From Giardia intestinalis (Eukaryota), in assembly GCA_000002435.2 (NCBI GenBank), contig CM018792.1: a stretch of DNA of 64,000 nt; one strand, written 5' to 3'. Numbering within the stretch: position 1 is the stretch's first letter; each line of letters begins with the position of its first letter. A model generated the notes under the pieces. That model ran no database searches and was not told the DNA's origin. It saw nothing but the letters and a program-made list of their open reading frames with translations. Both the position numbers and the translations under genes were made by a program. This document shows, piece after piece, positions 22,577-39,776 of the stretch.

Positions 22577-22831
22577 TTTTATCTTCTAGTCTTGTCTGCC
22601 AAGCTGTAGCCGACTACGCATACTTCGTAATGCGTAGACTATACCTCCTAAATAGCCTTGTCCACTACAGCTGATTCCGATGAACGGATCGTTGCTCCTG
22701 CCACACGGTGCCTTTCCCTATTGTGCACAGCATCCCATGAGCACAAGGCAACACTGAGTAGACGATACAACGGACGTTATCCCTAAGTTAGTGGCCATCA
22801 CCAGGATCCATTGATACATTCACTACCCGAG

Positions 22832-24735
22832 TCACGCCTTCCCCCTGCACAGGAACCACCAGCAGAGGAAGCCCACGAGGCCCCCCACGACGACGACCAC
22901 AGCGACGGAGATCCCCGCGATGGCCCCCGTGGAGAGCCCGCCCCTGTTGGCGCCAGAGGACACACAGGAGGCCCCAGCATCATCAGGGCTGTACCCATCG
23001 TTGCACACACAGACAGAGTTATCATCAGTGGAGTTGCTGGGACAGCCATCCACGCATGACTTCCTCCCAGGGCTCACCTTCCCACTACTACATGCCTCGC
23101 ACATGTCATCCCTGTTGGGCTTCTTACTACTGTCACAGGAGGTACAGACAGCGGGGGCCATACCACCATCAGACAGAGCTGCTGGGGCTGTACACTGGGA
23201 GCAGCCCTCTACCCCCACATATGCCTTAGCAGTATTACCAGTGCCTGTCAGTGTGCCTAGGGGTTACTACAAGCCAACACAGACTGATCAGTGTTGGATG
23301 CACCAGGCACTACGAAGTACCTATTGTTGGCTGCTTCTGTGCAGATCCCAGTATTACCTGCTGTCTTGCACATGAAGCTACCAGGAGCCTTCTGAGTGCT
23401 ATAACAGCCACCCATGTATAGGAAGTAGTTGTTGGTGCACTGTGTACATACACCATTAGCACAAGTATTCCCAGCCTTTTGAGCCTCACTAGCACAGAGA
23501 CCATCTATAGGAGCTTGTGAACTATCTCCACAATAGGAACAGTAGTGCTTTGTGGTGCCCTGATCATCTATTACGATGGCATCACAAGAGCCAGCTGTCC
23601 CCCCACAAGCCGTGGGGTCCTCGCAGGTCTTCTCTGTGCATGTATAGTTGTCTGAGGTTCCAGCGGGCTTCCTGTTAGGCTTGCACTTTGTGCACTTGAG
23701 AGGTCCTGTAGACTCCTTTGTGCACTCGGCACACCCATCGATGCCCCCCTGTGCATTATCACAAGCAACGCACTCACCAGTAGGACCATTGCCTTTCATG
23801 AAGAACCCAGGCTTGCATGTATCACACTTATCATTGCCAGTTTGAGTGCAGGTGGCACAGTTAGCACCTGGACAAGCGGTGCATGTAACCGTACCACTAC
23901 CACTACTGTAGTATCCATCGAGGCACTCCGAGCAGGTCGGCGGTGTCGCCGAGTCCTTGGTACACTTCTTACACCCGGCAATGCCCTGGTAATTTGGATC
24001 GGCTCCAGCTGAAACGGTACTGCATAAAACACATGTTTTGTCCTCCTTCATAAATAGGGCCTCGTCAGCGCCTTTACATCCAGCGTAGTCTTTTGTCACG
24101 CACGTCGAGGTCCCATCAAGGGCCGTCCTGGGGATCTTACTGTTATCACAAGCTGTGCACTTCGGCTTCTTGGTAGTCGAATCAACCTCACACTGGGTAC
24201 ATGCTTGATCTATCGTGTTGCAAGGAAGGCACTTCCCCGACTCCGGGTCAGCATAAGTGTTTCCAGTGCATCCATTATTATTCACGCATGACTTGTCAGT
24301 CTTCAGGTACTTCCCCTCTGGGCACGATGTACAATGATTCTGACCACTTCCATCGCAGGTCAGACAGGACGGATCACACTGCTTGCATTCGTTATTCTCT
24401 TTATAGTACCCTGCTTGGCACTCAGTGCACGTGGCAGGTCCTGGACTATTAGTTGGTTCCGTGCACTTGAGGCAGTTAGCCACCCCCGTATATCCATCTG
24501 CTCCCTTGGTATCCCAGCAGAGGATGCACTCCCTTCCCTTCTCTGATGGTGTAGCAGGGTTCTTGAACAGGCCGTTAGCTGTATTACACTCAGTGCACAC
24601 TCCATTACTGGCTGCTGTGCATATCTCACTGCCAGGGTGTGCATCCTTGTTGTAGCACCCGCCCATGAAGAGGAGTCTCATACTATCACTATCACCCCCA
24701 CACCACATAGCACTATCACTATCACTGTACAGCAT
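22832..24735 (-). pseudogene. VSP unit 0 (N-module A', middle X, C-terminal type 1), frameshifted by loss of one G in a G5 run
   Basis: At 23260-23263 the + strand reads cctaggggttactac (G4), whereas every other X-type unit reads cctagggggttactac (G5). This splits the unit into ORFs 23257..24735 and 22832..23218. Last unit of the array. Confidence 0.65.
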
Positions 24736-24740
24736 TCACT
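24734..24740 (-). promoter_or_regulatory. Giardia-type polyadenylation signal AGTGAAT (AGTRAAY) 6 nt after the unit-1 stop codon, overlapping the unit-0 ATG (AGTGAATG). The same motif recurs at every unit junction and after the last unit (22820..22826)
   Basis: + strand attcact (reverse complement AGTGAAT) at 24734-24740. The identical arrangement occurs at 26630-26636, 28551-28557, 30422-30428, 32226-32232, 34101-34107, 36015-36021, 37932-37938 and 39763-39769 (by periodicity). Consensus AGTPuAAPy is the known Giardia polyA signal. Confidence 0.55.
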
Positions 24741-24747
24741 ACCTAAG

Positions 24748-26631
24748 TCACGCCTTCCCCCTGCACAGGAACCACCAGCAGAGGAAGCCCACGAGGCCCC
24801 CCACGACAGCGACCACGGCGACGGCAATGCCCGCGATGGCCCCCGTGCTGAGGCCGCTCCTATTACTGCCAGAGGACACACAGGAGGCCCCAGCATCATC
24901 AGGGCTGTACCCATCGTTGCACACACAGACAGAGTTATCATCAGTGGAGTTGCTGGGACAGCCATCCACGCATGACTTCCTCCCAGGGCTCACCTTCCCA
25001 CTACTACATGCCTCGCACATGTCATCCCTGTTGGGCTTCTTACTACTGTCACAGGAGGTACAGACAGCGGGGGCCATACCACCATCAGACAGAGCTGCTG
25101 GGGCTGTACACTGGGAGCAGCCCTCTACCCCGACGTATGCCTTAGTATCTACTAGTGTGCCTAATGGGTTGCCACAGGCCAGGACAGACTGATCAGTGTT
25201 GGATGCACCAGGGACTACGAAGTACTTATTATTCTCATTGGCAGCTGTACACTTACCATCGGCTGCTGTCTTGCACATGAGGCTTCCTGGTTCTGTATCA
25301 TACTTATAACACCCACCCATGTACAAGAAGTAGTTGTTAGTGCATTGTGTACATACACCTTGATCACATTGATTATTTGCTTTAGCACTATTACACTTCC
25401 CATCTATAGGATACGTATTAGCTTCTCCACAGTATGAGCAATAATGATGCTCTACACCCTTATCATCAATCACTATTGCATCGCAGGCACCAGAGGTACC
25501 ACCACAAGCCGTGGGGTCTTCACATGTCTTCACACATGTATAGTCATCCCCCGCATCTCCATTGGATTGCTTCCTGTAGTTAGGCTTACATTCAGTGCAC
25601 TTGAACCCATTATTGTTAGAACATAGACTACAGCCTTCACGGCCACCATCTGTTGTACTGTCACAAGCAACGCACTCACCAGTAGAGCCGGGTTGTTTCA
25701 TGAAGAATCCAGGCTTGCATTTAGTGCACTTATCATTGCCAGCTTGAGTGCAGGTGGCACAGTTGGCACCACAGGCTTCACATGTAACCGTACCACCATT
25801 TCCACTATTGTAATATCCGTCGAGGCACTCCGAGCAGGTCGGCTTGGCTCCGTTCTTCTTACATGTTTTACACCCAGGCGTCCCTTTATTAGCTTCTAAA
25901 CTTTCACTATCATCACTACACAATATGCACTTGGTGCTACCATCATTTAGAAAGTGGGATCCGTCAACGTTACTTGTTGCGCACCCATTTGCATCGACAC
26001 AGGTTGTCGTGCCATCGATGGCCGTCTTCACCATCTTCTGACCACCGCAGTTAGTGCACTTCGGCTTCTTGGTAGTCGAATCAACCTCACACTGGGTACA
26101 TGCTTGATCTATCGTGTTGCAAGGAAGGCACTTCCCCGACTCCGGGTCAGCATAAGTGTTTCCAGTGCATCCATTATTATTCACGCATGACTTGTCAGTC
26201 TTCAGGTACTTCCCCTCTGGACACGATGTGCAATGATTCGGACCACTTCCATCGCAGGTCAGACAGGACTGATCACACTTCTCACATGCATCACCCTTCT
26301 TAATGTATCCATCTTGGCAGACAGTGCATGTGGCCGGTCCGCTAGTGCCCGTGTGGGAGCATTCTGAGCATCCAGCGACTCCCATGACCCCGTTTCTATC
26401 TATAGTATCGGAGCACAAGATGCACTCACTACCCTTCTCTGATGGTGTAACTGGGTTCTTGAACAGGCCGTTAGCTGTATTACAAGCAGTGCACAGTCCT
26501 CCCTCAGCCTTTGTGCATATCTCACTGCCAGGGTGTGCATCCTTGTTGTAGCACCCGCCCATGAAGAGGAGTCTCATACTATCACTATCACCCCCACACC
26601 ACATAGCACTATCACTATCACTGTACAGCAT
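24748..26631 (-). CDS. VSP unit 1 (N-module A, middle Y, C-terminal type 1); ATG start but no signal peptide
   Basis: 627-aa intact ORF with ATG at 26629-26631 (cat). Ends FLCWWFLCRGKA, stop at 24748-24750. Confidence 0.8.
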   Translation of the reverse strand: MLYSDSDSAMWCGGDSDSMRLLFMGGCYNKDAHPGSEICTKAEGGLCTACNTANGLFKNPVTPSEKGSECILCSDTIDRNGVMGVAGCSECSHTGTSGPATCTVCQDGYIKKGDACEKCDQSCLTCDGSGPNHCTSCPEGKYLKTDKSCVNNNGCTGNTYADPESGKCLPCNTIDQACTQCEVDSTTKKPKCTNCGGQKMVKTAIDGTTTCVDANGCATSNVDGSHFLNDGSTKCILCSDDSESLEANKGTPGCKTCKKNGAKPTCSECLDGYYNSGNGGTVTCEACGANCATCTQAGNDKCTKCKPGFFMKQPGSTGECVACDSTTDGGREGCSLCSNNNGFKCTECKPNYRKQSNGDAGDDYTCVKTCEDPTACGGTSGACDAIVIDDKGVEHHYCSYCGEANTYPIDGKCNSAKANNQCDQGVCTQCTNNYFLYMGGCYKYDTEPGSLMCKTAADGKCTAANENNKYFVVPGASNTDQSVLACGNPLGTLVDTKAYVGVEGCSQCTAPAALSDGGMAPAVCTSCDSSKKPNRDDMCEACSSGKVSPGRKSCVDGCPSNSTDDNSVCVCNDGYSPDDAGASCVSSGSNRSGLSTGAIAGIAVAVVAVVGGLVGFLCWWFLCRGKA

Positions 26632-26643
26632 TCACTACCTAAG

Positions 26644-28552
26644 TCACGCCTTCCCCCTGCACAGGAACCACCAGCAGAGGAAGCCCACGAGGCCCCCCAC
26701 GACAGCGACCACGGCGACGGCAATGCCCGCGATGGCCCCCGTGCGGAGGCCGCTCCTATTACTGCCAGAGGACACACAGGAGGCCCCAGCATCATCAGGG
26801 CTGTACCCATCGTTGCACACACAGACAGAGTTATCATCAGTGGAGTTGCTGGGACAGCCATCCACGCATGACTTCCTCCCAGGGCTCACCTTCCCACTAC
26901 TACATGCCTCGCACATGTCATCCCTGTTGCAGTGGGAGCATCCCTCAATAGCACATGCGAAGCACCCACTACCATCCCTGTTGGGCTTCTTACTACTGTC
27001 ACAGGAGGTACACACAGCAGCAGTCATGCCACCATCAGATGGAGCTGCTGGGGCTGTACATGCTGAGCAGCCATCCACCCCAACGTATGCCTTAGTATCT
27101 ACTAGTGTGCCTAATGGGTTACCACATGCCAATACAGACTGATTCTGATTGGTTGCCCCTGGGACTACGAAGTACTTATTATTGGCCGCCTCTGTGCATA
27201 TCCCATTGTTACCTGCGGTCTTGCACATGTAGTTGCCTGGTGGACTCTGAGTGCTATAACAGCCACCCATGTACAAGAAGTAGTTGTTAGTGCATTGTGT
27301 ACATACACCTTGATCACATTGATTATTTGCTTTAGCACTATTACACTTCCCATCTATAGGATACGTATTAGCTTCTCCACAGTATGAGCAATAATGATGC
27401 TCTACACCCTTATCATCAATCACTATGGCATCACAGGCACCAGAGGTACCACCACAAGCAGTGTCATCCTCACAGGTCTTCACACATGTATAGTCATCCC
27501 CCGCATCTCCATTGGATTGCTTCCTGTAGTTAGGCTTACATTCAGTGCACTTGAACCCATTATTGTTAGAACATAGACTACAGCCTTCACGGCCACCATC
27601 TGTTGTACTGTCACAAGCAACGCACTCACCAGTAGAGCCGGGTTGTTTCATGAAGAATCCAGGCTTGCATTTAGTGCACTTATCATTGCCAGCTTGAGTG
27701 CAGGTGGCACAGTTGGCACCACAGGCTTCACATGTAACCGTACCACCATTCCACTATGTAATATCCGTCGAGGCACTCCGAGCAGGTCGGCTTGGCTCCG
27801 TTCTTTACATGTTTACACCCGGCGTCCCTTTATTAGCTTCTAAACTTACTCATACAACACATGCTTGGTGCTCCATCATAGAATGGGATCCGTCACGTTA
27901 CTTGCGCAGCCTTTTGCATCGACACAGGTGTCGTGCCATCGATGGCCGTCTCACCATCTTCTGACCACCGCAGTGTGCACTTCGGCTTCTTGGTAGTCGA
28001 ATCAACCTCACACTGGGTACATGCTTGATCTATCGTGTTGCAAGGAAGGCACTTCCCCGACTCCGGGTCAGCATAAGTGTTTCCAGTGCATCCATTATTA
28101 TTCACGCATGACTTGTCAGTCTTCAGGTACTTCCCCTCTGGACACGATGTGCAATGATTCGGACCACTTCCATCGCAGGTCAGACAGGACTGATCACACT
28201 TCTCACATGCATCACCCTTCTTAATGTATCCATCTTGGCAGACAGTGCATGTGGCCGGTCCGCTAGTGCCCGTGTGGGAGCATTCTGAGCATCCAGCGAC
28301 TCCCATGACCCCGTTTCTATCTATAGTATCGGAGCACAAGATGCACTCACTACCCTTCTCTGATGGTGTAACTGGGTTCTTGAACAGGCCGTTAGCTGTA
28401 TTACAAGCAGTGCACAGTCCTCCCTCAGCCTTTGTGCATATCTCACTGCCAGGGTGTGCATCCTTGTTGTAGCACCCGCCCATGAAGAGGAGTCTCATAC
28501 TATCACTATCACCCCCACACCACATAGCACTATCACTATCACTGTACAGCAT
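26644..28552 (-). pseudogene. VSP unit 2, decayed. The N-module A piece (27893..28552) and the middle-Y/C-terminal piece (26644..27651) are separated by a ~250-bp zone with at least 6 small deletions relative to unit 1
   Basis: Alignment of 27740..27960 with 25790..26060 shows multiple 1-3 nt deletions (e.g. accaccatttccactattgtaatatcc vs accaccattccactatgtaatatcc). Also an 18-aa insertion (GSGCFACAIEGCSHCNRD) in the C-terminal module. Confidence 0.7.
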
Positions 28553-28564
28553 TCACTACCTAAG

Positions 28565-30358
28565 TCACGCCTTCCCCCTGCACAGGAACCACCAGCAGAG
28601 GAAGCCCACGAGGCCCCCCACGACAGCGACCACGGCGACGGCAATGCCCGCGATGGCCCCCGTGCGGAGGCCGCTCCTATTACTGCCAGAGGACACACAG
28701 GAGGCCCCAGCATCATCAGGGCTGTACCCATCGTTGCACACACAGACAGAGTTATCATCAGTGGAGTTGCTGGGACAGCCATCCACGCATGACTTCCTCC
28801 CAGGGCTCACCTTCCCACTACTACATGCCTCGCACATGTCATCCCTGTTGGGCTTCTTACTACTGTCACAGGAGGTACAGACAGCGGGGGCCATACCACC
28901 ATCAGACAGAGCTGCTGGGGCTGTACACTGGGAGCAGCCCTCTACCCCCACATATGCCTTAGCAGTATTACCAGTGCCTGTCAGTGTGCCTAGGGGGTTA
29001 CTACAAGCCAACACAGACTGATCAGTGTTGGATGCACCAGGCACTACGAAGTACCTATTGTTGGCTGCTTCTGTGCAGATCCCAGTATTACCTGCTGTCT
29101 TGCACATGAAGCTACCAGGAGCCTTCTGAGTGCTATAACAGCCACCCATGTATAGGAAGTAGTTGTTGGTGCACTGTGTACATACACCATTAGCACAAGT
29201 ATTCCCAGCCTTTTGAGCCTCACTAGCACAGAGACCATCTATAGGAGCTTGTGAACTATCTCCACAATAGGAACAGTAGTGCTTTGTGGTGCCCTGATCA
29301 TCTATTACGATGGCATCACAAGAGCCAGCTGTCCCCCCACAAGCCGTGGGGTCCTCGCAGGTCTTCTCTGTGCATGTATAGTTGTCTGAGGTTCCAGCGG
29401 GCTTCCTGTTAGGCTTGCACTTTGTGCACTTGAGAGGTCCTGTAGACTCCTTTGTGCACTCGGCACACCCATCGATGCCCCCCTGTGCATTATCACAAGC
29501 AACGCACTCACCAGTAGGACCATTGCCTTTCATGAAGAACCCAGGCTTGCATGTATCACACTTATCATTGCCAGTTTGAGTGCAGGTGGCACAGTTAGCA
29601 CCTGGACAAGCGGTGCATGTAACCGTACCACTACCACTACTGTAGTATCCATCGAGGCACTCCGAGCAGGTCGGCGGTGTCGCCGAGTCCTTGGTACACT
29701 TCTTACACCCGGCAATGCCCTGGTCATTTGGATCGGCTCCAGCTGAAACGGTACTGCATAAAACACATGTTTTGTCCTCCTTCATAAATAGGGCCTCGTC
29801 AGCGCCTTTACATCCAGCGTAGTCTTTTGTCACGCACGTCGAGGTCCCATCAAGGGCCGTCCTGGGGATCTTACTGTTATCACAAGCTGTGCACTTCGGC
29901 TTCTTGGTAGTCGAATCAACCTCACACTGGGTACATGCTTGATCTATCGTGTTGCAAGGAAGGCACTTCCCCGACTCCGGGTCAGCATAAGTGTTTCCAG
30001 TGCATCCATTATTATTCACGCATGCATTATCCTTCAGGAACGTATTTCCCTTACAAGAGGTACACTGGGTCGCCGACGTCTCACAGGTCAGGCAAGAGTC
30101 GTTGCACTTCTCACATGCCCCGTTACTATTTAGAAAGTATCCCTCTGTGCAGGTATCACATGTAGCTGCTCCTGCATTCTGTGGTGCCGTACATGTGGCG
30201 CAGTTCTCCACTCCCTTTGTCGCGCCATCTCCCACCGTGTCCCAGCACAGGATGCACTCCCTTCCCTTCTCTGGTGTTGCAGCCGGGTTCTGGAATATGT
30301 ACTGGTTATCTACCTTACAAGCAGTGCACACTCCACTACTGACCTTTGTGCATATCAC
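28565..30358 (-). CDS. VSP unit 3 (N-module B, middle X, C-terminal type 1). No ATG-initiated ORF: the junction ATG at 30421-30423 gives MLYNV* and an expanded TATCAC repeat
   Basis: 597-aa ORF from GTG: ICTKVSSGVCTACKVDNQ...; ends FLCRGKA. Confidence 0.75.
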   Translation of the reverse strand: MICTKVSSGVCTACKVDNQYIFQNPAATPEKGRECILCWDTVGDGATKGVENCATCTAPQNAGAATCDTCTEGYFLNSNGACEKCNDSCLTCETSATQCTSCKGNTFLKDNACVNNNGCTGNTYADPESGKCLPCNTIDQACTQCEVDSTTKKPKCTACDNSKIPRTALDGTSTCVTKDYAGCKGADEALFMKEDKTCVLCSTVSAGADPNDQGIAGCKKCTKDSATPPTCSECLDGYYSSGSGTVTCTACPGANCATCTQTGNDKCDTCKPGFFMKGNGPTGECVACDNAQGGIDGCAECTKESTGPLKCTKCKPNRKPAGTSDNYTCTEKTCEDPTACGGTAGSCDAIVIDDQGTTKHYCSYCGDSSQAPIDGLCASEAQKAGNTCANGVCTQCTNNYFLYMGGCYSTQKAPGSFMCKTAGNTGICTEAANNRYFVVPGASNTDQSVLACSNPLGTLTGTGNTAKAYVGVEGCSQCTAPAALSDGGMAPAVCTSCDSSKKPNRDDMCEACSSGKVSPGRKSCVDGCPSNSTDDNSVCVCNDGYSPDDAGASCVSSGSNRSGLRTGAIAGIAVAVVAVVGGLVGFLCWWFLCRGKA

Positions 30359-30420
30359 ACTCCACTATCACCCTATCACCCTCTATCACCCACTATCACC
30401 CATTATCACACATTGTACAG
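30352..30420. repeat. Variable-copy microrepeat (core TATCAC on the + strand, GTGATA on the coding strand) at unit junctions. About 5 copies at this junction versus 2 at 32164..32239 and 39701..39776. The same core forms the MLYSDSDSAMWCGGDSDS N-terminal codons of the A-type units
   Basis: 30356..30410: ccactatcac cctatcac cctctatcac ccactatcac ccattatcac a. The A-type junction (e.g. 24681..24732) reads catactatcactatcacccccacaccacatagcactatcactatcactgtacag. Confidence 0.7.
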
Positions 30421-30435
30421 CATTCACTACCTAAG

Positions 30436-32163
30436 TCACGCCTTCCCTCTACACACGAACCACCAGCAGAGGAACCCTATGAGACCCCCCACGACGACGA
30501 CCACAGCGACGGAGATCCCCGCGATGGCCCCCGTGGAGAGCCCGCCCCTGTTGGCGCCAGAGGACACACACTTACCACCCTCTAGACTGTATCCATCAAC
30601 ACACTCCCCACATATATTATCCATCACACAGCTCTTGCAGTTGGTGTCAGAGCATGTCACACACCCAGTGCCATCCTTGTTGGGCACCTTACTATTGTCA
30701 CAGGAGGTACACACAGCAGCAGTCATGCCAGCTGTTGTTAGAGCTGCTGGGGCTGTACACTGGGAGCAGCCCTCTACCCCCACATATGCCTTAGCAGTAT
30801 TACCAGTGCCTGTCAGTGTGCCAAGGGGGTTACTACAAGCCAACACAGACTGATCAGTGTTGGATGCACCAGGCACTACGAAGTACCTATTGTTGGCTGC
30901 TTCTGTGCAGATCCCAGTATTACCTGCTGTCTTGCACATGAAGCTACCAGGAGCCTTCTGAGTGCTATAACAGCCACCCATGTATAGGAAGTAGTTGTTG
31001 GTGCACTGTGTACATACACCATTAGCACAAGTATTCCCAGCCTTTTGAGCCTCACTAGCACAGAGACCATCTATAGGAGCTTGTGAACTATCTCCACAAT
31101 AGGAACAGTAGTGCTTTGTGGTGCCCTGATCATCTATTACGATGGCATCACAAGAGCCAGCTGTCCCCCCACAAGCCGTGGGGTCCTCGCAGGTCTTCTC
31201 TGTGCATGTATAGTTGTCTGAGGTTCCAGCGGGCTTCCTGTTAGGCTTGCACTTTGTGCACTTGAGAGGTCCTGTAGACTCCTTTGTGCACTCGGCACAC
31301 CCATCGATGCCCCCCTGTGCATTATCACAAGCAACGCACTCACCAGTAGGACCATTGCCTTTCATGAAGAACCCAGGCTTGCATGTATCACACTTATCAT
31401 TGCCAGTTTGAGTGCAGGTGGCACAGTTAGCACCTGGACAAGCGGTGCATGTAACCGTACCACTACCACTACTGTAGTATCCATCGAGGCACTCCGAGCA
31501 GGTCGGCGGTGTCGCCGAGTCCTTGGTACACTTCTTACACCCGGCAATGCCCTGGTAATTTGGATCGGCTCCAGCTGAAACGGTACTGCATAAAACACAT
31601 GTTTTGTCCTCCTTCATAAATAGGGCCTCGTCAGCGCCTTTACATCCAGCGTAGTCTTTTGTCACGCACGTCGAGGTCCCATCAAGGGCCGTCCTGGGGA
31701 TCTTACTGTTATCACAAGCTGTGCACTTCGGCTTCTTGGTAGTCGAATCAACCTCACACTGGGTACATGCTTGATCTATCGTGTTGCAAGGAAGGCACTT
31801 CCCCGACTCCGGGTCAGCATAAGTGTTTCCAGTGCATCCATTATTATTCACGCATGCATTATCCTTCAGGAACGTATTTCCCTTACAAGAGGTACACTGG
31901 GTCGCCGACGTCTCACAGGTCAGGCAAGAGTCGTTGCACTTCTCACATGCCCCGTTACTATTTAGAAAGTATCCCTCTGTGCAGGTATCACATGTAGCTG
32001 CTCCTGCATTCTGTGGTGCCGTACATGTGGCGCAGTTCTCCACTCCCTTTGTCGCGCCATCTCCCACCGTGTCCCAGCACAGGATGCACTCCCTTCCCTT
32101 CTCTGGTGTTGCAGCCGGGTTCTGGAATATGTACTGGTTATCTACCTTACAAGCAGTGCACAC
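30436..32163 (-). CDS. VSP unit 4 (N-module B, middle X, C-terminal type 2, ending FVCRGKA). No ATG-initiated ORF: the junction ATG gives MLYNV*
   Basis: ORF opens at GTG: (V)CTACKVDNQYIFQNPAATPEKGRECILCWDT... A 76-nt junction (32164..32239) separates it from unit 5. Confidence 0.75.
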   Translation of the reverse strand: MCTACKVDNQYIFQNPAATPEKGRECILCWDTVGDGATKGVENCATCTAPQNAGAATCDTCTEGYFLNSNGACEKCNDSCLTCETSATQCTSCKGNTFLKDNACVNNNGCTGNTYADPESGKCLPCNTIDQACTQCEVDSTTKKPKCTACDNSKIPRTALDGTSTCVTKDYAGCKGADEALFMKEDKTCVLCSTVSAGADPNYQGIAGCKKCTKDSATPPTCSECLDGYYSSGSGTVTCTACPGANCATCTQTGNDKCDTCKPGFFMKGNGPTGECVACDNAQGGIDGCAECTKESTGPLKCTKCKPNRKPAGTSDNYTCTEKTCEDPTACGGTAGSCDAIVIDDQGTTKHYCSYCGDSSQAPIDGLCASEAQKAGNTCANGVCTQCTNNYFLYMGGCYSTQKAPGSFMCKTAGNTGICTEAANNRYFVVPGASNTDQSVLACSNPLGTLTGTGNTAKAYVGVEGCSQCTAPAALTTAGMTAAVCTSCDNSKVPNKDGTGCVTCSDTNCKSCVMDNICGECVDGYSLEGGKCVSSGANRGGLSTGAIAGISVAVVVVVGGLIGFLCWWFVCRGKA

Positions 32164-32239
32164 TCCACTACTGGCCTGTGTGCATATCTCACTCCACTAT
32201 CACCCATTATCACACATTGTACAGCATTCACTACCTAAG

Positions 32240-34102
32240 TCACGCCTTCCCCCTGCAGATGAACCACCAGCAGAGGAACCCTATGAGACCCCCCACGACG
32301 ACGACCACAGCGACGGAGATCCCCGCGATGGCCCCCGTGGAGAGCCCGCCCCTGTTGGCGCCAGAGGACACACACTTACCACCCTCTAGACTGTATCCAT
32401 CAACACACTCCCCACATATATTATCCATCACACAGCTCTTGCAGTTGGTGTCAGAGCATGTCACACACCCAGTGCCATCCTTGTTGGGCACCTTACTATT
32501 GTCACAGGAGGTACACACAGCAGCAGTCATGCCAGCTGTTGTTAGAGCTGTTGGTGCTGTACACCGGGAGCAGCCATATACTCCTACATATGCCTTAGCG
32601 GTACTATCAGTGCCTACTAGTGTGCCTAGGGGGTTACTACAAGCCAACACAGACTGATCAGTGTTGGATGCACCAGGCACTACGAAGTACCTATTGTTGG
32701 CTGCTTCTGTGCAGATCCCAGTATTACCTGCTGTCTTGCACATGAAGCTACCAGGAGCCTTCTGAGTGCTATAACAGCCACCCATGTATAGGAAGTAGTT
32801 GTTGGTGCACTGTGTACATACACCATTAGCACAAGTATTCCCAGCCTTTTGAGCCTCACTAGCACAGAGACCATCTATAGGAGCTTGTGAACTATCTCCA
32901 CAATAGGAACAGTAGTGCTTTGTGGTGCCCTGATCATCTATTACGATGGCATCACAAGAGCCAGCTGTCCCCCCACAAGCCGTGGGGTCCTCGCAGGTCT
33001 TCTCTGTGCATGTATAGTTGTCTGAGGTTCCAGCGGGCTTCCTGTTAGGCTTGCACTTTGTGCACTTGAGAGGTCCTGTAGACTCCTTTGTGCACTCGGC
33101 ACACCCATCGATGCCCCCCTGTGCATTATCACAAGCAACGCACTCACCAGTAGGACCATTGCCTTTCATGAAGAACCCAGGCTTGCATGTATCACACTTA
33201 TCATTGCCAGTTTGAGTGCAGGTGGCACAGTTAGCACCTGGACAAGCGGTGCATGTAACCGTACCACTACCACTACTGTAGTATCCATCGAGGCACTCCG
33301 AGCAGGTCGGCGGTGTCGCCGAGTCCTTGGTACACTTCTTACACCCGGCAATGCCCTGGTAATTTGGATCGGCTCCAGCTGAAACGGTACTGCATAAAAC
33401 ACATGTTTTGTCCTCCTTCATAAATAGGGCCTCGTCAGCGCCTTTACATCCAGCGTAGTCTTTTGTCACGCACGTCGAGGTCCCATCAAGGGCCGTCCTG
33501 GGGATCTTACTGTTATCACAAGCTGTGCACTTCGGCTTCTTGGTAGTCGAATCAACCTCACACTGGGTACATGCTTGATCTATCGTGTTGCAAGGAAGGC
33601 ACTTCCCCGACTCCGGGTCAGCATAAGTGTTTCCAGTGCATCCATTATTATTCACGCATGACTTGTCAGTCTTCAGGTACTTCCCCTCTGGACACGATGT
33701 GCAATGATTCGGACCACTTCCATCGCAGGTCAGACAGGACTGATCACACTTCTCACATGCATCACCCTTCTTAATGTATCCATCTTGGCAGACAGTGCAT
33801 GTGGCCGGTCCGCTAGTGCCCGTGTGGGAGCATTCTGAGCATCCAGCGACTCCCATGACCCCGTTTCTATCTATAGTATCGGAGCACAAGATGCACTCAC
33901 TACCCTTCTCTGATGGTGTAACTGGGTTCTTGAACAGGCCGTTAGCTGTATTACAAGCAGTGCACAGTCCTCCCTCAGCCTTTGTGCATATCTCACTGCC
34001 AGGGTGTGCATCCTTGTTGTAGCACCCGCCCATGAAGAGGAGTCTCATACTATCACTATCACCCCCACACCACATAGCACTATCACTATCACTGTACAGC
34101 AT
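32240..34102 (-). CDS. VSP unit 5 (N-module A, middle X, C-terminal type 2, ending FICRGKA); no signal peptide
   Basis: 620-aa intact ORF. The C-terminal module MTAAVCTSCDNSKVPNKDGTGCVTCSDTNCKSCVMDNICGECVDGYSLEGGKCVSSGANRGG... is shared with unit 4 and resembles the head gene. Confidence 0.8.
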   Translation of the reverse strand: MLYSDSDSAMWCGGDSDSMRLLFMGGCYNKDAHPGSEICTKAEGGLCTACNTANGLFKNPVTPSEKGSECILCSDTIDRNGVMGVAGCSECSHTGTSGPATCTVCQDGYIKKGDACEKCDQSCLTCDGSGPNHCTSCPEGKYLKTDKSCVNNNGCTGNTYADPESGKCLPCNTIDQACTQCEVDSTTKKPKCTACDNSKIPRTALDGTSTCVTKDYAGCKGADEALFMKEDKTCVLCSTVSAGADPNYQGIAGCKKCTKDSATPPTCSECLDGYYSSGSGTVTCTACPGANCATCTQTGNDKCDTCKPGFFMKGNGPTGECVACDNAQGGIDGCAECTKESTGPLKCTKCKPNRKPAGTSDNYTCTEKTCEDPTACGGTAGSCDAIVIDDQGTTKHYCSYCGDSSQAPIDGLCASEAQKAGNTCANGVCTQCTNNYFLYMGGCYSTQKAPGSFMCKTAGNTGICTEAANNRYFVVPGASNTDQSVLACSNPLGTLVGTDSTAKAYVGVYGCSRCTAPTALTTAGMTAAVCTSCDNSKVPNKDGTGCVTCSDTNCKSCVMDNICGECVDGYSLEGGKCVSSGANRGGLSTGAIAGISVAVVVVVGGLIGFLCWWFICRGKA

Positions 34103-34114
34103 TCACTACCTAAG

Positions 34115-36016
34115 TCACGCCTTCCCCCTGCACAGGAACCACCAGCAGAGGAAGCCCACGAGGCCCCCCACGACAGCGACCACGGCGACGGCAATGCCCG
34201 CGATGGCCCCCGTGCGGAGGCCGCTCCTATTACTGCCAGAGGACACACAGGAGGCCCCAGCATCATCAGGGCTGTACCCATCGTTGCACACACAGACAGA
34301 GTTATCATCAGTGGAGTTGCTGGGACAGCCATCCACGCATGACTTCCTCCCAGGGCTCACCTTCCCACTACTACATGCCTCGCACATGTCATCCCTGTTG
34401 GGCTTCTTACTACTGTCACAGGAGGTACAGACAGCGGGGGCCATACCACCATCAGACAGAGCTGCTGGGGCTGTACACTGGGAGCAGCCCTCTACCCCCA
34501 CATATGCCTTAGCAGTATTACCAGTGCCTGTCAGTGTGCCAAGGGGGTTACTACAAGCCAACACAGACTGATCAGTGTTGGATGCACCAGGCACTACGAA
34601 GTACCTATTGTTGGCTGCTTCTGTGCAGATCCCAGTATTACCTGCTGTCTTGCACATGAAGCTACCAGGAGCCTTCTGAGTGCTATAACAGCCACCCATG
34701 TATAGGAAGTAGTTGTTGGTGCACTGTGTACATACACCATTAGCACAAGTATTCCCAGCCTTTTGAGCCTCACTAGCACAGAGACCATCTATAGGAGCTT
34801 GTGAACTATCTCCACAATAGGAACAGTAGTGCTTTGTGGTGCCCTGATCATCTATTACGATGGCATCACAAGAGCCAGCTGTCCCCCCACAAGCCGTGGG
34901 GTCCTCGCAGGTCTTCTCTGTGCATGTATAGTTGTCTGAGGTTCCAGCGGGCTTCCTGTTAGGCTTGCACTTTGTGCACTTGAGAGGTCCTGTAGACTCC
35001 TTTGTGCACTCGGCACACCCATCGATGCCCCCCTGTGCATTATCACAAGCAACGCACTCACCAGTAGGACCATTGCCTTTCATGAAGAACCCAGGCTTGC
35101 ATGTATCACACTTATCATTGCCAGTTTGAGTGCAGGTGGCACAGTTAGCACCTGGACAAGCGGTGCATGTAACCGTACCACTACCACTACTGTAGTATCC
35201 ATCGAGGCACTCCGAGCAGGTCGGCGGTGTCGCCGAGTCCTTGGTACACTTCTTACACCCGGCAATGCCCTGGTAATTTGGATCGGCTCCAGCTGAAACG
35301 GTACTGCATAAAACACATGTTTTGTCCTCCTTCATAAATAGGGCCTCGTCAGCGCCTTTACATCCAGCGTAGTCTTTTGTCACGCACGTCGAGGTCCCAT
35401 CAAGGGCCGTCCTGGGGATCTTACTGTTATCACAAGCTGTGCACTTCGGCTTCTTGGTAGTCGAATCAACCTCACACTGGGTACATGCTTGATCTATCGT
35501 GTTGCAAGGAAGGCACTTCCCCGACTCCGGGTCAGCATAAGTGTTTCCAGTGCATCCATTATTATTCACGCATGACTTGTCAGTCTTCAGGTACTTCCCC
35601 TCTGGACACGATGTGCAATGATTCGGACCACTTCCATCGCAGGTCAGACAGGACTGATCACACTTCTCACATGCATCACCCTTCTTAATGTATCCATCTT
35701 GGCAGACAGTGCATGTGGCCGGTCCGCTAGTGCCCGTGTGGGAGCATTCTGAGCATCCAGCGACTCCCATGACCCCGTTTCTATCTATAGTATCGGAGCA
35801 CAAGATGCACTCACTACCCTTCTCTGATGGTGTAACTGGGTTCTTGAACAGGCCGTTAGCTGTATTACAAGCAGTGCACAGTCCTCCCTCAGCCTTTGTG
35901 CATATCTCACTGCCAGGGTGTGCATCCTTGTTGTAGCACCCGCCCATGAAGAGGAGTCTCATACTATCACTATCACCCCCACACCACATAGCACTATCAC
36001 TATCACTGTACAGCAT
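34115..36016 (-). CDS. VSP unit 6 (N-module A, middle X, C-terminal type 1); ATG start but no signal peptide
   Basis: 633-aa intact ORF. N-terminal 190 aa identical to units 1, 2 and 5; middle identical to units 0, 3, 4, 5 and 7. Confidence 0.8.
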   Translation of the reverse strand: MLYSDSDSAMWCGGDSDSMRLLFMGGCYNKDAHPGSEICTKAEGGLCTACNTANGLFKNPVTPSEKGSECILCSDTIDRNGVMGVAGCSECSHTGTSGPATCTVCQDGYIKKGDACEKCDQSCLTCDGSGPNHCTSCPEGKYLKTDKSCVNNNGCTGNTYADPESGKCLPCNTIDQACTQCEVDSTTKKPKCTACDNSKIPRTALDGTSTCVTKDYAGCKGADEALFMKEDKTCVLCSTVSAGADPNYQGIAGCKKCTKDSATPPTCSECLDGYYSSGSGTVTCTACPGANCATCTQTGNDKCDTCKPGFFMKGNGPTGECVACDNAQGGIDGCAECTKESTGPLKCTKCKPNRKPAGTSDNYTCTEKTCEDPTACGGTAGSCDAIVIDDQGTTKHYCSYCGDSSQAPIDGLCASEAQKAGNTCANGVCTQCTNNYFLYMGGCYSTQKAPGSFMCKTAGNTGICTEAANNRYFVVPGASNTDQSVLACSNPLGTLTGTGNTAKAYVGVEGCSQCTAPAALSDGGMAPAVCTSCDSSKKPNRDDMCEACSSGKVSPGRKSCVDGCPSNSTDDNSVCVCNDGYSPDDAGASCVSSGSNRSGLRTGAIAGIAVAVVAVVGGLVGFLCWWFLCRGKA

Positions 36017-36028
36017 TCACTACCTAAG

Positions 36029-37933
36029 TCACGCCTTCCCCCTGCACAGGAACCACCAGCAGAGGAAGCCCACGAGGCCCCCCACGACAGCGACCACGGC
36101 GACGGCAATGCCCGCGATGGCCCCCGTGCTGAGGCCGCTCCTATTACTGCCAGAGGACACACAGGAGGCCCCAGCATCATCAGGGCTGTACCCATCGTTG
36201 CACACACAGACAGAGTTATCATCAGTGGAGTTGCTGGGACAGCCATCCACGCATGACTTCCTCCCAGGGCTCACCTTCCCACTACTACATGCCTCGCACA
36301 TGTCATCCCTGTTGGGCTTCTTACTACTGTCACAGGAGGTACAGACAGCGGGGGCCATACCACCATCAGACAGAGCTGCTGGGGCTGTACACTGGGAGCA
36401 GCCCTCTACCCCCACATATGCCTTAGCAGTATTACCAGTGCCTGTCAGTGTGCCAAGGGGGTTACTACAAGCCAACACAGACTGATCAGTGTTGGATGCA
36501 CCAGGCACTACGAAGTACCTATTGTTGGCTGCTTCTGTGCAGATCCCAGTATTACCTGCTGTCTTGCACATGAAGCTACCAGGAGCCTTCTGAGTGCTAT
36601 AACAGCCACCCATGTATAGGAAGTAGTTGTTGGTGCACTGTGTACATACACCATTAGCACAAGTATTCCCAGCCTTTTGAGCCTCACTAGCACAGAGACC
36701 ATCTATAGGAGCTTGTGAACTATCTCCACAATAGGAACAGTAGTGCTTTGTGGTGCCCTGATCATCTATTACGATGGCATCACAAGAGCCAGCTGTCCCC
36801 CCACAAGCCGTGGGGTCCTCGCAGGTCTTCTCTGTGCATGTATAGTTGTCTGAGGTTCCAGCGGGCTTCCTGTTAGGCTTGCACTTTGTGCACTTGAGAG
36901 GTCCTGTAGACTCCTTTGTGCACTCGGCACACCCATCGATGCCCCCCTGTGCATTATCACAAGCAACGCACTCACCAGTAGGACCATTGCCTTTCATGAA
37001 GAACCCAGGCTTGCATGTATCACACTTATCATTGCCAGTTTGAGTGCAGGTGGCACAGTTAGCACCTGGACAAGCGGTGCATGTAACCGTACCACTACCA
37101 CTACTGTAGTATCCATCGAGGCACTCCGAGCAGGTCGGCGGTGTCGCCGAGTCCTTGGTACACTTCTTACACCCGGCAATGCCCTGGTCATTTGGATCGG
37201 CTCCAGCTGAAACGGTACTGCATAAAACACATGTTTTGTCCTCCTTCATAAATAGGGCCTCGTCAGCGCCTTTACATCCAGCGTAGTCTTTTGTCACGCA
37301 CGTCGAGGTCCCATCAAGGGCCGTCCTGGGGATCTTACTGTTATCACAAGCTGTGCACTTCGGCTTCTTGGTAGTCGAATCAACCTCACACTGGGTACAT
37401 GCTTGATCTATCGTGTTGCAAGGAAGGCACTTCCCCGACTCCGGGTCAGCATAAGTGTTTCCAGTGCATCCATTATTATTCACGCATGACTTGTCAGTCT
37501 TCAGGTACTTCCCCTCTGGGCACGATGTACAATGATTCTGACCACTTCCATCGCAGGTCAGACAGGACGGATCACACTGCTTGCATTCGTTATTCTCTTT
37601 ATAGTACCCTGCTTGGCACTCAGTGCACGTGGCAGGTCCTGGACTATTAGTTGGTTCCGTGCACTTGAGGCAGTTAGCCACCCCCGTATATCCATCTGCT
37701 CCCTTGGTATCCCAGCAGAGGATGCACTCCCTTCCCTTCTCTGATGGTGTAGCAGGGTTCTTGAACAGGCCGTTAGCTGTATTACACTCAGTGCACACTC
37801 CATTACTGGCTGCTGTGCATATCTCACTGCCAGGGTGTGCATCCTTGTTGTAGCACCCGCCCATGAAGAGGAGTCTCATACTATCACTATCACCCCCACA
37901 CCACATAGCACTATCACTATCACTGTACAGCAT
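36029..37933 (-). CDS. VSP unit 7 (N-module A', middle X, C-terminal type 1); ATG start but no signal peptide
   Basis: MLYSDSDSAMWCGGDSDSMRLLFMGGCYNKDAHPGSEICTAASNGVCTEC... ; ends FLCRGKA; intact 634-aa ORF. Confidence 0.8.
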   Translation of the reverse strand: MLYSDSDSAMWCGGDSDSMRLLFMGGCYNKDAHPGSEICTAASNGVCTECNTANGLFKNPATPSEKGRECILCWDTKGADGYTGVANCLKCTEPTNSPGPATCTECQAGYYKENNECKQCDPSCLTCDGSGQNHCTSCPEGKYLKTDKSCVNNNGCTGNTYADPESGKCLPCNTIDQACTQCEVDSTTKKPKCTACDNSKIPRTALDGTSTCVTKDYAGCKGADEALFMKEDKTCVLCSTVSAGADPNDQGIAGCKKCTKDSATPPTCSECLDGYYSSGSGTVTCTACPGANCATCTQTGNDKCDTCKPGFFMKGNGPTGECVACDNAQGGIDGCAECTKESTGPLKCTKCKPNRKPAGTSDNYTCTEKTCEDPTACGGTAGSCDAIVIDDQGTTKHYCSYCGDSSQAPIDGLCASEAQKAGNTCANGVCTQCTNNYFLYMGGCYSTQKAPGSFMCKTAGNTGICTEAANNRYFVVPGASNTDQSVLACSNPLGTLTGTGNTAKAYVGVEGCSQCTAPAALSDGGMAPAVCTSCDSSKKPNRDDMCEACSSGKVSPGRKSCVDGCPSNSTDDNSVCVCNDGYSPDDAGASCVSSGSNRSGLSTGAIAGIAVAVVAVVGGLVGFLCWWFLCRGKA

Positions 37934-37945
37934 TCACTACCTAAG

Positions 37946-39700: not shown

Positions 39701-39776
39701 TCCACTACTGGCCTGTGTGCATATCTCACTCCACTATCACCCATTATCACACATTGTACAGCATTCACTACCTAAG

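Follow-up and report, generated by a model that had tools for sequence, protein, structure and literature searches.

Giardia VSP genes and pseudogenes can form linear arrays, in which copies follow one another head-to-tail and the spacers are very short or overlap (PMC2996952; Rodriguez-Walker et al. 2022 preprint; G. muris, PMC7641422). In the arrays reported by Adam et al. (2010; PMC2996952), intergenic spacers have a mean length of 60 bp, downstream members lack the initiator (Inr), and a role as cassettes was proposed; typical 5′ features are common in the first member, although Inr is present in only 12/25 first members. The initiator, PyAATGTT, is reported at the start codon of 135/136 complete VSPs, an extended poly(A) signal is described as specific to VSPs and VSP pseudogenes, and current classifications place array members without a signal peptide among the pseudogenes (bioRxiv 10.1101/2022.03.07.483299). 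The many silent VSP pseudogene arrays of Giardia may be no more than dead remains, or they may serve as a working archive from which new surface antigens are supplied (PMC2996952, PMC7641422).

Here we describe the sequence that joins the units of one such array. The joint sequence, its GTGATA filler and the copy-number variation of that filler are not described in the searched text of the VSP-array papers (PMC2996952, 2022 preprint, PMC7641422). Our analysis indicates that the GTGATA tract is probably a non-coding, unstable, minisatellite-like filler in the joints of a known type of VSP pseudogene ('linear') array.

Anatomy of the array and its joints

The window (the whole stretch of DNA that was analysed, 64 kb) contains ten VSP 3′ ends arranged head-to-tail on the minus strand. 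These belong to one upstream 'parent' and nine units of 1.8-1.9 kb.

22832-42074, minus strand: head-to-tail VSP array, the parent and nine units, each ending TM-CRGKA-TGA
39777-42074, minus strand: parent gene, without an in-frame ATG
39777, 37946, 36029, 34115, 32240, 30436, 28565, 26644, 24748, 22832: stop codons of the array (lowest coordinates)
30422-30436, minus strand: extended VSP poly(A) signal ACTTAGGTAGTGAAT, overlapping the stop codon and providing the AT for the ATG of the following unit

The ten consecutive 3′ ends are spaced 1804-1921 bp apart, with 12 nt from stop codon to next ATG, an arrangement that fits a VSP linear array (at least two adjacent head-to-tail VSP genes with very short or overlapping spacers). 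Unit translations end in GFLCWWF(L/I/V)CRGKA, and ten ...GGGAAGGCGTGA (RGKA-stop) ends occur in the array, giving the C-terminal transmembrane segment and CRGKA tail of VSPs. The Pfam VSP family PF03302 is matched with E=3.1e-43 (148.6 bits versus a cut-off of 31.4) and is present in all of the top 120 homologues. The closest database matches of the units are VSPs of G. lamblia ATCC 50803, and XP_001705183 shares 100% identity over 379 aa with the unit at 23599-24735; the source of the array is Giardia intestinalis, WB-like.

As in other VSP linear arrays, downstream members lack the initiator and a signal peptide, the units are mosaics with long 100%-identical tracts, and some units carry an ORF from Met to CRGKA without a signal peptide while others have no start codon. 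This array differs in that its head gene also lacks a start codon: the parent has a signal-peptide-like AFLLIPLFVVSALA, yet no in-frame ATG, and neither an ATG nor Inr precedes that segment. No signal peptide was found in any unit of either joint type, on visual inspection and when set beside MFQLIPLFVASALMA of the WB VSP P0003. PyAATGTT is absent at all unit starts, whichever the joint type; the context of the junction ATG is GAATGCT, and a second ATG in some joints (the B-type, below) reads CAATGTG, matching the initiator at 6/7 positions. Since the units have no signal peptide or PyAATGTT, all are pseudogene-type array members regardless of joint.

All nine joints read TGA-CTTAGGTAGTGA-ATGCTGTAC. 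The consensus of the extended VSP poly(A) signal is ACTYAGRTAGTRAAY. The 15-mer ACTTAGGTAGTGAAT has nine exact matches, all in the array and one per joint, and the tenth signal, at the array end, is the variant ACTCGGGTAGTGAAT. The uniform reading of the nine joints identifies the unit 'ATG' as the poly(A) signal AGTGAAT followed by G; this ATG thus arises incidentally from the poly(A) signal. Beyond this common start the joints fall into two types, A-type at six (identical) and B-type at three.

37814-37933, minus strand: A-type junction, one of six identical, in frame with the unit
35897-36016, 33983-34102, 28433-28552, 26512-26631 and 24616-24735, minus strand: the other A-type junctions
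30347-30423, minus strand: expanded B-type filler, with the junction ATG (30423), MLYNV-stop and six exact GTGATA (30353-30409)
32179-32227, minus strand: short B-type filler ATGCTGTACAATGTGTGATAATGGGTGATAGTGGAGTGAGATATGCACA, with two exact GTGATA (32198-32213), the degenerate GTGAGATA and MLYNV-stop
39716-39764, minus strand: short B-type filler at the boundary of parent and first unit, identical to 32179-32227, with two exact GTGATA (39735-39750) and the degenerate GTGAGATA

A-type joints (junction ATGs at 37933, 36016, 34102, 28552, 26631 and 24735) read ATGCTGTAC(AGTGAT)2AGTGCTATGTGGTGTGGGG(GTGATA)2GTATGAGA, followed by the codons for LLFMGGCY...SEICT. Their four GTGATA copies, (GTGATA)2...(GTGATA)2, lie in frame and yield MLYSDSDSAMWCGGDSDS...GGCY. 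As the initial annotation of this DNA had noted, the repeat core in these six units is translated as SDSDS (AGT GAT AGT GAT AGT), and further on as GDSDS (GGT GAT AGT GAT AGT). Units begin MLYSDSDSAMW... or have no start. In principle, SDSDS...GGDSDS might form an N-terminus, tuned by repeat length, of VSP-like proteins that are expressed despite having no signal peptide, given that four units have full ORFs of 620-634 aa from junction ATG to CRGKA, that the known length variant steps by a whole 6 nt ((SD)2 versus (SD)3), and that such ORFs were called VSP in the older WB annotation. We consider a coding role very unlikely. The units have neither a signal peptide nor Inr, they are pseudogenes in current classifications, the remaining two are frameshifted, and the ATG stems from the poly(A) signal.

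In the B-type joints the GGCY segment is missing and the junction ATG opens the reading MLYNV-stop, which we confirmed in the units starting at 30423, 32227 and 39764, where that ATG is off the VSP frame by 2, 1 and 1. The initial annotation held that the repeat kills the unit ORF. The junction-ATG frame is indeed closed in these three units, but the wording is too strong, because the ATG is a poly(A) by-product and all units are of pseudogene type. Likewise, the suggested replacement of the GGCY region by the repeat applies to the three B-type units, but not to the A-type units, which retain GGCY downstream of the repeat. B-type units have their first in-frame Met only at residue 183-395 and keep open frames of 575-597 codons without an internal stop; either these are recent copies or something has preserved them, and we count this against the reading of the array as silent filler-joined remnants.

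The repeat described earlier at 30352-30423 is real and reads, on the minus strand, ATGCTGTACAATGTG TGA TAA TGG GTGATAGTGG GTGATAGAGG GTGATAGG GTGATAGTGGA GTGTGATATGCACA. The expanded filler that contains it (30347-30423) ends GTG ATA TGC ACA, encoding (E>V)ICT in the VSP frame, and has stop codons in three frames (5, 2 and 4). Tandem Repeats Finder assigns 30362-30409 to 5.0 copies of a 10-nt unit with 87% matches.

Enrichment, structure and possible origin of the filler

Exact GTGATA counts are 2, 2 and 6 at the B-type joints, all in one array, and 4 at each A-type joint, in agreement with the initial description of a copy-number-variable microrepeat at unit junctions. The sequence GGTGATAG occurs 12 times in the 64 kb, always on the minus strand and always at the nine junctions, against 1.93 occurrences expected; none of 100 shuffles reached 12. 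The spaced pair GTGATA-N2-6-GTGATA was found six times versus 0.02 expected. The tract therefore consists of head-to-tail copies of a short unit beyond chance, as a micro- or minisatellite does. Durigan et al. (2018; PMC6291164) report that SSRs are polymorphic and often located in or near VSPs, and the filler resembles those loci in its short tandem units with interspersed variants and in a copy number that differs between loci and assemblies. It differs from micro- and minisatellites in its irregular unit (6, 8, 10 or 11 nt), its few copies (2-6) and its tie to the array joint; the motif GTGATA goes unmentioned in PMC6291164.

Each joint fuses a conserved VSP 3′ end (TM, CRGKA, stop and extended poly(A) signal) to a 5′-truncated VSP body, the link between them being ~35-65 nt of GT-rich filler with the core GTGATA. 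The period of the filler is 6 nt in A-type joints and 8-11 nt, GTGATAGNGG, in B-type joints. As a degenerate mini- or microsatellite it may shift in length through replication slippage or unequal exchange, and it would be liable to microhomology-mediated deletion. A B-type joint would arise by fusion of the tract with the similar AGTGAGATA in the SEICT codons further downstream, an event that would remove the GGCY segment and throw the fortuitous junction ATG out of frame. The conserved linker (3′ end, filler, GGCY/SEICT) may be copied as a block during unit duplication or mutual conversion, with the filler sitting mid-linker and not acting as a preferred breakpoint. Slippage, microhomology deletion and conversion are the mechanisms that we infer.

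Several structural and sequence classes were compared with the filler. No hairpin or cruciform was detected at the joints (z-scores -0.19 to +1.09), and no Rfam family matched anywhere in the window. The telomere unit of Giardia is TAGGG. On inspection, the tract has a single TAGGG and a 10-nt rather than 5-nt period, and a telomere-like repeat was rejected. We also rejected a derivation from whatever normally follows free-standing VSP genes, as no significant similarity was seen (fractions 0.05-0.76).

The position of the tract might suggest that it serves 3′-end formation or termination of the upstream unit, either as a GT-rich downstream element beside the cleavage site or as a three-frame stop barrier that insulates each cassette against read-through. 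The first GTGATA lies ~27 nt (B-type) or 22 nt (A-type) past the stop codon, within the range of 16-38 nt reported for VSP cleavage sites (bioRxiv 10.1101/2022.03.07.483299); the tract is GU-rich on the transcribed strand, and in its expanded form it stops all three frames. However, the unit frame runs through the A-type tract without a stop, so that this tract provides no barrier, and the sequence past the poly(A) signal is unrelated in free-standing VSP genes. Known downstream GU/U-rich elements are reported as not enriched in Giardia, with doubtful CstF candidates (PMC9014877), and the corresponding G. muris VSP pseudogene arrays are described as essentially untranscribed (PMC7641422). A 3′-end role is thus highly improbable. 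Nothing that we found points to any function of the tract beyond being unstable junk carried with the joint, and we infer that it has none.

As to origin, the filler could be a decayed VSP 5′ end, comprising the initiator CAATGTT, the ATG and the codons that open the signal peptide (Leu-Leu-Ile-Ala, ATGTTGTTGATAGC). On this view, every unit would originally have had a start of its own immediately behind the poly(A) signal of its upstream neighbour, and GTGATAG would be an amplified TTGATAG. The B-type head TACAATGTGTGATA(A/G) aligns with CAATGTTGTTGATAG, with two 1-nt gaps and 13-14 matches, at precisely the place where a gene would be expected to start, and CAATGTTGTTGATAG is the real 5′ end of a P15 VSP (L013:9719-9745) and of vsp1267 (primer, PMC7066823); the filler goes on GATAGTGCT against GATAGCGCT in L013. 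These scores are nevertheless borderline relative to background 60-nt segments taken elsewhere in the window (fractions 0.016-0.085 for P15 and 0.04-0.30 for the vsp1267 primer), a second kind of VSP 5′ end (L011) shows no resemblance (fractions 0.25-0.82), the sequence is of low complexity and the hypothesis is post hoc. We regard this origin as possible but doubtful. It concerns origin only and is compatible with an unstable filler.

Identity tracts and the expanded joint

Relative to the 2-copy joints, the expanded (5-copy) joint carries a 28-nt insertion and the change GAGATA>GTGATA, together with two SNPs just downstream and four SNPs in the preceding 3′ end, so that the repeat does not vary between otherwise identical units, as had been supposed. 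The insertion is made up of three distinct variant units, the clustered SNPs number seven in all, and identity then resumes. The 3′-end variant of this joint, GTGTGTAGAGGG, also precedes the multi-copy joints of a metagenome locus (L010). The 5-copy joint is a haplotype patch of its own, ~150 nt long, and does not represent a clean expansion. This linker variant (30347-30423) was probably acquired from another array by short-tract conversion and would not have grown in place.

Perfect identity extends across every A-type joint (at least 98+135 nt), and the recurrent boundary of the identity blocks falls outside the repeat, immediately behind ATATGCACA and 135 nt beyond the stop codon. Junction type is completely linked to the 3′-end type of the preceding unit (9/9). 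The identity that crosses the joints, together with this linkage, indicates that recent exchanges ended within gene bodies and not at the repeat, which argues against its proposed role as a hotspot defining the 5′ edge of each unit.

Short repeats of a comparable kind are known from antigenic-variation cassettes. The 70-bp repeats of T. brucei, the conserved junction element of Pneumocystis MSG genes and the direct repeats of Borrelia vls are shared with the expression site and mark conversion endpoints. In Giardia, by contrast, VSP switching is viewed as an epigenetic or post-transcriptional process and not a recombinational one. The GTGATA tract resembles the cassette repeats as a short repeat at the 5′ boundary of each silent tandem cassette, but here the head gene has no tract (at the corresponding position the parent reads TGCGGCGACGGGTACTTCCTCTTC) and identity blocks run through it; it is thus neither shared with the head gene nor a marker of exchange endpoints. 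A general parallel with other antigenic-variation cassette systems is drawn in PMC7641422.

By analogy with the T. brucei VSG 70-bp repeats, the Pneumocystis MSG junction element and the G4 of Neisseria pilE, the tract could still be a cis-acting recombination element, namely a fragile or G4-forming site or a homology box that starts conversion or unequal exchange among cassettes. The relevant structural feature is the following.

30371-30401, minus strand: canonical G-quadruplex motif (G3N1-7 x4) GGGTGATAGTGGGTGATAGAGGGTGATAGGG, the sole such motif in the window

This motif arises from the extra repeat copies of the expanded tract. A single motif is at chance level (0.69 expected per shuffled window, hence no enrichment), and eight of the nine joints have none. 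Initiation of exchange at the tract would agree with the placement of the 5-copy joint in a short patch of clustered differences resembling a short conversion tract, with the conservation of the filler across arrays whose unit bodies share ~60-65% identity, with deletions at other loci that end inside the tract, and with the proposal that array cassettes are recombination donors (PMC2996952; PMC7641422). Set against this are the identity tracts that cross the joints, the linkage of joint type to the upstream 3′ end and the recurrent block boundary 135 nt past the stop, not in the repeat. The parent gene lacks the tract at the matching position, and the tract can therefore supply no homology with the head gene of the array. 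We judge a cis-acting recombination element to be improbable, and the same applies to the specific version in which the expanded GTGATAGNGG tract is an instability element whose G4 or fragile site on the coding strand triggers inter-array short-patch conversion. If that version were true, the element would keep the joint linker uniform genome-wide and seed new mosaic cassettes.

The filler at other loci

The motif had been recommended for a search beside other VSP genes, and it was found there. Other WB VSP proteins have the same core at their N-terminus (MLYSDSDSAMWCGGDSGG..., MLYSDSDSDSAMWCGG... with three SD, and MIVLCGVLCSVGDSDS...), and other WB arrays encode (SD)2 versus (SD)3. The same filler is present, with other copy numbers, in three independent (unrelated) short-read metagenome assemblies from ENA, a comparison of copy number that covers different joints and different loci. 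In two of the metagenome loci (L003 and L010) the filler reads GTGATAATGG GTGATAGAAG GTGATAGAGG GTGATATGCACA, and its last GTGATA doubles as the (V/M)I codons of SEICT. A third locus (L009) has more than five copies and combines a B-type head with an A-type tail in which the GGCY region is preserved, so that A and B are ends of a continuum; at L009:1886 the filler abuts the C-terminal GGCKSC region, and the result is a mini-unit of ~270 bp. The overlap with the SEICT codons and this fusion both favour joining through microhomology. The variant units ATGG, GTGG, GAGG and GAAG are common to several loci in differing order. Two further candidates, from other assemblages, were rejected as head-to-tail joints: the GS-B locus (L012) consists of a truncated VSP preceded by GC-rich sequence, whereas a full-length VSP interrupted by an internal TAG occupies the P15 locus (L013).

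The peptide encoded by the filler is more conserved between WB arrays than are the unit bodies. For example, MLYSDSDSAMWCGGDS is identical in WB P0004, whose body has 64% identity to the best-matching unit. We count this against an unstable, functionless filler, as it could reflect constraint, although homogenisation of a short segment between two conserved blocks explains it equally well.

The recurrence of the filler in three metagenome assemblies and in other WB VSPs shows that repeats of this kind do not stem from faulty assembly, the possibility that the initial annotation had named as its refutation. The extra copies at 30352-30410 could, more narrowly, be an assembly or consensus error in a highly repetitive array. 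Near-identical 1.9-kb units are hard to assemble, and there are discrepancies with the older WB annotation, where P0001 shares 93.5% identity with the best-matching unit and a frameshift terminates P0005. No independent assembly of the array locus was retrieved: exact-product look-ups of a unit ORF and of the upstream flanking ORF in other assemblies gave no match, as did look-ups of the chromosome-borne WB VSPs P0003 and P0049; the 2203-aa neighbour was recovered on one 8.4-kb Logan contig only, which ends short of the array; and a JGI metagenome scan for AGGTAGTGAATGCTRTACA returned five matches, all to unrelated non-VSP sequence. However, a 28-nt insertion of three distinct variant units with seven linked SNPs is atypical of consensus error, and multi-copy tracts of like design occur in the three independent short-read assemblies. 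An artefact at this joint is extremely unlikely.

The joint filler does not settle whether silent VSP arrays are dead remains or a working archive. The joints do explain why array members have been annotated variously as 'ORF without signal peptide' or 'no start codon', and the MLYSDSDS N-termini in the older WB annotation are to be read as translated junction filler, not protein sequence. Each joint also carries a short variable 'barcode', given by the number and order of its ATGG, GTGG, GAGG and GAAG variant units. If long reads were available for several clones, unit duplication, unequal exchange and short-tract conversion could be followed by means of these barcodes.

Array layout and anatomy of the joints

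Ten VSP 3′ ends terminating in CRGKA-TGA are carried on the minus strand at approximately 22.8-42.1 kb, with a spacing of 1804-1921 bp. The unit ORF matches Pfam PF03302 (VSP; E=3e-43), and its best protein matches are VSPs of ATCC 50803; across 379 residues XP_001705183 shares 100% identity with the unit at 23599-24735. The window is DNA of Giardia intestinalis, either of isolate WB or of a near-identical one.

Features of the array and its flanks
39777-42074, minus strand: parent VSP gene, longer than the units, owner of the first VSP 3′ end
U8 to U0, minus strand: nine units, named in descending coordinate order
37933, 36016, 34102, 28552, 26631, 24735, minus strand: ATGs of six identical A-type joints, which keep the GGCY segment
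39764, 32227, 30423, minus strand: ATGs of three B-type joints, without this segment
21416-22576: acyltransferase, ordinary flanking gene (start codon at 22576)
11319-13748: kinase with ankyrin repeats, ordinary flanking gene

All nine joints begin TGA CTTAGGTAGTGA ATG CTG TAC and carry the 15-mer ACTTAGGTAGTGAAT, the extended poly(A) signal that VSP genes typically have. The ‘ATG’ of each unit thus simply arises where the AAT ending AGTGAAT meets the following G. Such a signal has been reported as specific to VSPs and VSP pseudogenes (bioRxiv 10.1101/2022.03.07.483299). The joints diverge into two forms 3′ of ATGCTGTAC. A-type joints read (AGTGAT)2AGTGCTATGTGGTGTGGGG(GTGATA)2GTATGAGA followed by CTCCTCTTCATGGGCGGGTGCTAC, and their in-frame translation is MLYSDSDSAMWCGGDSDSMRLLFMGGCY... 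B-type joints comprise AATGTGTGATAATGG, at least one GTGATAGNGG unit and AGTG(A/T)GATATGCACA; as the initial annotation had described, translation from all three junction ATGs (39764, 32227 and 30423) yields MLYNV and then a stop; a second stop follows directly.

B-type joints 39764 and 32227 share one sequence, with two exact GTGATA copies plus a degenerate GTGAGATA. Joint 30423 has six exact copies, and this copy-rich tract, originally reported as five copies at 30352-30410, is real: Tandem Repeats Finder gives period 10 and 5.0 copies at 30362-30409, and GTGATA-N2-6-GTGATA occurs six times in the window versus 0.02 expected. GGTGATAG is found 12 times across the 64 kb, always at joints on the minus strand (1.93 expected). 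The repeat at the joints is not due to chance. A separate 12-nt tandem repeat, AGAAAGTTGCGA (five copies, 81% matches), lies at 55818-55877 inside a minus-strand 289-codon ORF (55548-56417) that has no Pfam match.

At the far end of the array (22790-22832, minus strand), the last unit has a variant poly(A) signal, ACTCGGGTAGTGAAT, followed 3′ by GTATCAATGGATCCTGGTGATGG in place of the usual filler, the GT-rich stretch inside the joint; 256 bp separate the array end from the acyltransferase start codon.

Reading frames and relation to the parent gene

Alignment of the parent with A-type units places the beginning of homology at (T/C)TCCTCTTCATGGGCGGGTGCTAC, the LFMGGCY codons, with the filler upstream of this homologous segment. 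In B-type units homology begins at AGTGAGATATGCACA, the SEICT codons, and the LFMGGCY segment is wholly absent. The proposal that the repeat replaces the GGCY region is thus true for the three B-type units only, since A-type units retain the GGCY codons downstream of the filler. Relative to the VSP frame, the B-type junction ATGs are shifted by 1, 1 and 2; the VSP frames are open for 575-597 codons with zero internal stops, and the first in-frame Met falls at residue 183-395. These three open, start-less units contrast with two frameshifted A-type units, U2 (26644-28564, minus strand; ORFs 27893-28552 and 26644-27651) and U0 (22832-24747, minus strand; ORFs 23257-24735 and 22832-23218).

The parent itself (41900-42200, minus strand) carries a signal-peptide-like AFLLIPLFVVSALAVTCQ without an in-frame ATG, reading ACA GCC TTT CTA CTG ATA where another WB VSP protein (P0003) starts MFQLIPLF. 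Sequence upstream of the parent is 59-64% GC, and GC-rich DNA reaches approximately 44000. A protein from another Giardia assembly has a similar upstream translation (...VRPGQRAFRWGSPRSGSLREEAAEAPP...), so that the absence of a start is a conserved feature of this 5′ end.

Mosaic blocks and the expanded joint

The units are mosaics of at least 99% identical blocks in varying combinations. The repeat had been proposed as a recombination hotspot defining the unit edge, and three observations speak against this. Block boundaries fall away from the repeat; all A-type joints are crossed by perfect identity (at least 98+135 nt), which reaches 423+594 nt or 98+1490 nt in some unit pairs; and joint type is fully linked to the 3′-end type of the preceding unit, type b preceding A-type joints (6/6), type a short B-type joints (2/2) and type c the expanded B-type joint (n=1). 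A recurrent downstream boundary lies immediately 3′ of ...GAGATATGCACA (SEICT codons), at which B-type joints also pick up the VSP frame. Exchange thus seems to favour the conserved SEICT motif over the repeat. This boundary recurs 135 nt beyond each A-type stop codon (for example 37814, 35897 and 33983).

Copy number does differ between units (two versus six exact GTGATA), but the units concerned are not otherwise identical, as linked SNPs accompany the difference and no clean expansion is seen. Relative to joint 32227, joint 30423 has a 28-nt insertion (GTGATAGTGG GTGATAGAGG GTGATAGG), a GAGATA to GTGATA change and two SNPs at most 20 nt downstream, and the preceding 3′ end carries four SNPs that change ...FICRGKA to ...FVCRGKA; beyond these differences the two joints are identical again. 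The GTGTGTAGAGGG 3′-end variant of joint 30423 also precedes the multi-copy joints of L010, an ENA metagenome contig. From this clustering and the shared variant we infer that the expanded joint is probably a patch of ~150 nt from another array, introduced by short-tract conversion, not by in-place slippage.

Other arrays and the nature of the filler

Far from being absent from independent assemblies, a joint of the same design is present in ENA metagenome contigs of three different samples; among JGI metagenomes, scanning for it returned unrelated sequences only. In contigs L003 and L010 the joints read ...TAGTGAATGCT(A/G)TACAATGTGTGATAATGG GTGATAGAAG GTGATAGAGG GTGATATGCACA, the last GTGATA forming the two codons that precede the CT of the SEICT motif. 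A joint in L009, also from ENA, joins a B-type head with at least five copies to an A-type tail keeping the GGCY region (...GTGGTGTGGGGGTGATAGTATGGGACTTCTCTTCATAGGAGGATGCTAC), so that A and B are not discrete classes. At a second L009 joint the filler is fused straight to the GGCKSC...CRGKA region of the C-terminus, and the resulting mini-unit of ~270 bp (1886-2150) resembles the 224-bp ‘vsp14’ fragment of Adam et al. 2010 (PMC2996952). This mini-unit runs into another joint.

The motif is also found at the N-termini of other WB VSP proteins (MLYSDSDSAMWCGGDSGGVGLLFMGGCY; MLYSDSDSDSAMWCGG..., with three SD; MIVLCGVLCSVGDSDSVGLLFMGGCY); the bodies of these proteins share only 60-65% identity with the window units. 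Three other WB arrays (P0004, P0006 and P0007) and the window units encode one and the same filler peptide, MLYSDSDSAMWCGGDS, and the joint, along with the C-terminus, is therefore the most conserved part of the units. Together with the ENA contigs, these proteins indicate that the filler belongs to several arrays and differs in copy number among them.

A VSP of G. intestinalis P15 (L013:9719-10010; ACVC01000194) is full-length, with an Inr CAATGTT plus MLLIALLFVSSTLA and an in-frame TAG within its first EICT-x-C motif, and is annotated only from a downstream MGGCY; ‘MGGCY-start’ VSP entries are therefore not all array members. Many assemblage B ‘partial VSP’ entries start VNDPAGVSIDSLCRP. The GS-B locus L012 (9990-10010; AHHH01000010) starts GTGAGTGAACGATCC, has GC-rich non-VSP sequence upstream in place of a VSP 3′ end, and is a different kind of 5′-truncated VSP.

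The canonical VSP start is a possible, though rather unlikely, origin of the filler. The junction CAATG-TG-TGATAG resembles CAATGTTGTTGATAGCGCT, a VSP start found in the P15 VSP and in the vsp1267 primer, and the similarity is suggestive but borderline (background fractions 0.016-0.085 with the P15 start). Sequences that follow free-standing VSP genes showed no significant similarity to the filler versus background windows.

No hairpin was found at the tract on either strand (z-scores -0.19 to +1.09), and a search of the whole window against Rfam gave no family match. A single canonical G-quadruplex motif exists across the 64 kb, made by the expanded tract (30371-30401; 0.69 expected by chance) and absent at the other eight joints. 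We consider it very improbable that the tract acts in cis as a fragile site or G4 element and drives short-patch conversion among arrays. First GTGATA copies begin ~22-27 nt past the stop codon, inside the 16-38 nt range of VSP cleavage sites (bioRxiv 10.1101/2022.03.07.483299); Giardia has no known GU-rich downstream element (PMC9014877). Most likely, the tract is unstable, non-functional junction filler. The initial observation is thus confirmed and its interpretation partly supported.

VSP ‘linear arrays’ with very short spacers, initiator-less downstream members and mosaic relationships were described in 2010 and suggested to be silent cassettes or discarded genes (PMC2996952); their members were reclassified in 2022 as VSP pseudogenes (bioRxiv 10.1101/2022.03.07.483299). 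In that scheme, A-type units correspond to the class ‘ORF from Met to CRGKA without signal peptide’, B-type units to the class ‘no proper start codon, in arrays’. Silent arrays of a similar kind occur in G. muris, where gene conversion has been inferred (PMC7641422), and simple repeats in or near VSP genes are frequent and polymorphic (PMC6291164). The literature texts that were searched do not mention the filler of the joints, GTGATA or the MLYSDSDS peptide, which are therefore a new descriptive detail inside a known structure. No unit has what VSP expression needs. Filler length and microhomology-driven deletions would set whether the fortuitous ATG keeps frame, and a conserved linker, which runs from the 3′ end and poly(A) signal through the filler to GGCY/SEICT, would be copied as a single piece, with the variable cassette bodies lying between such linkers.
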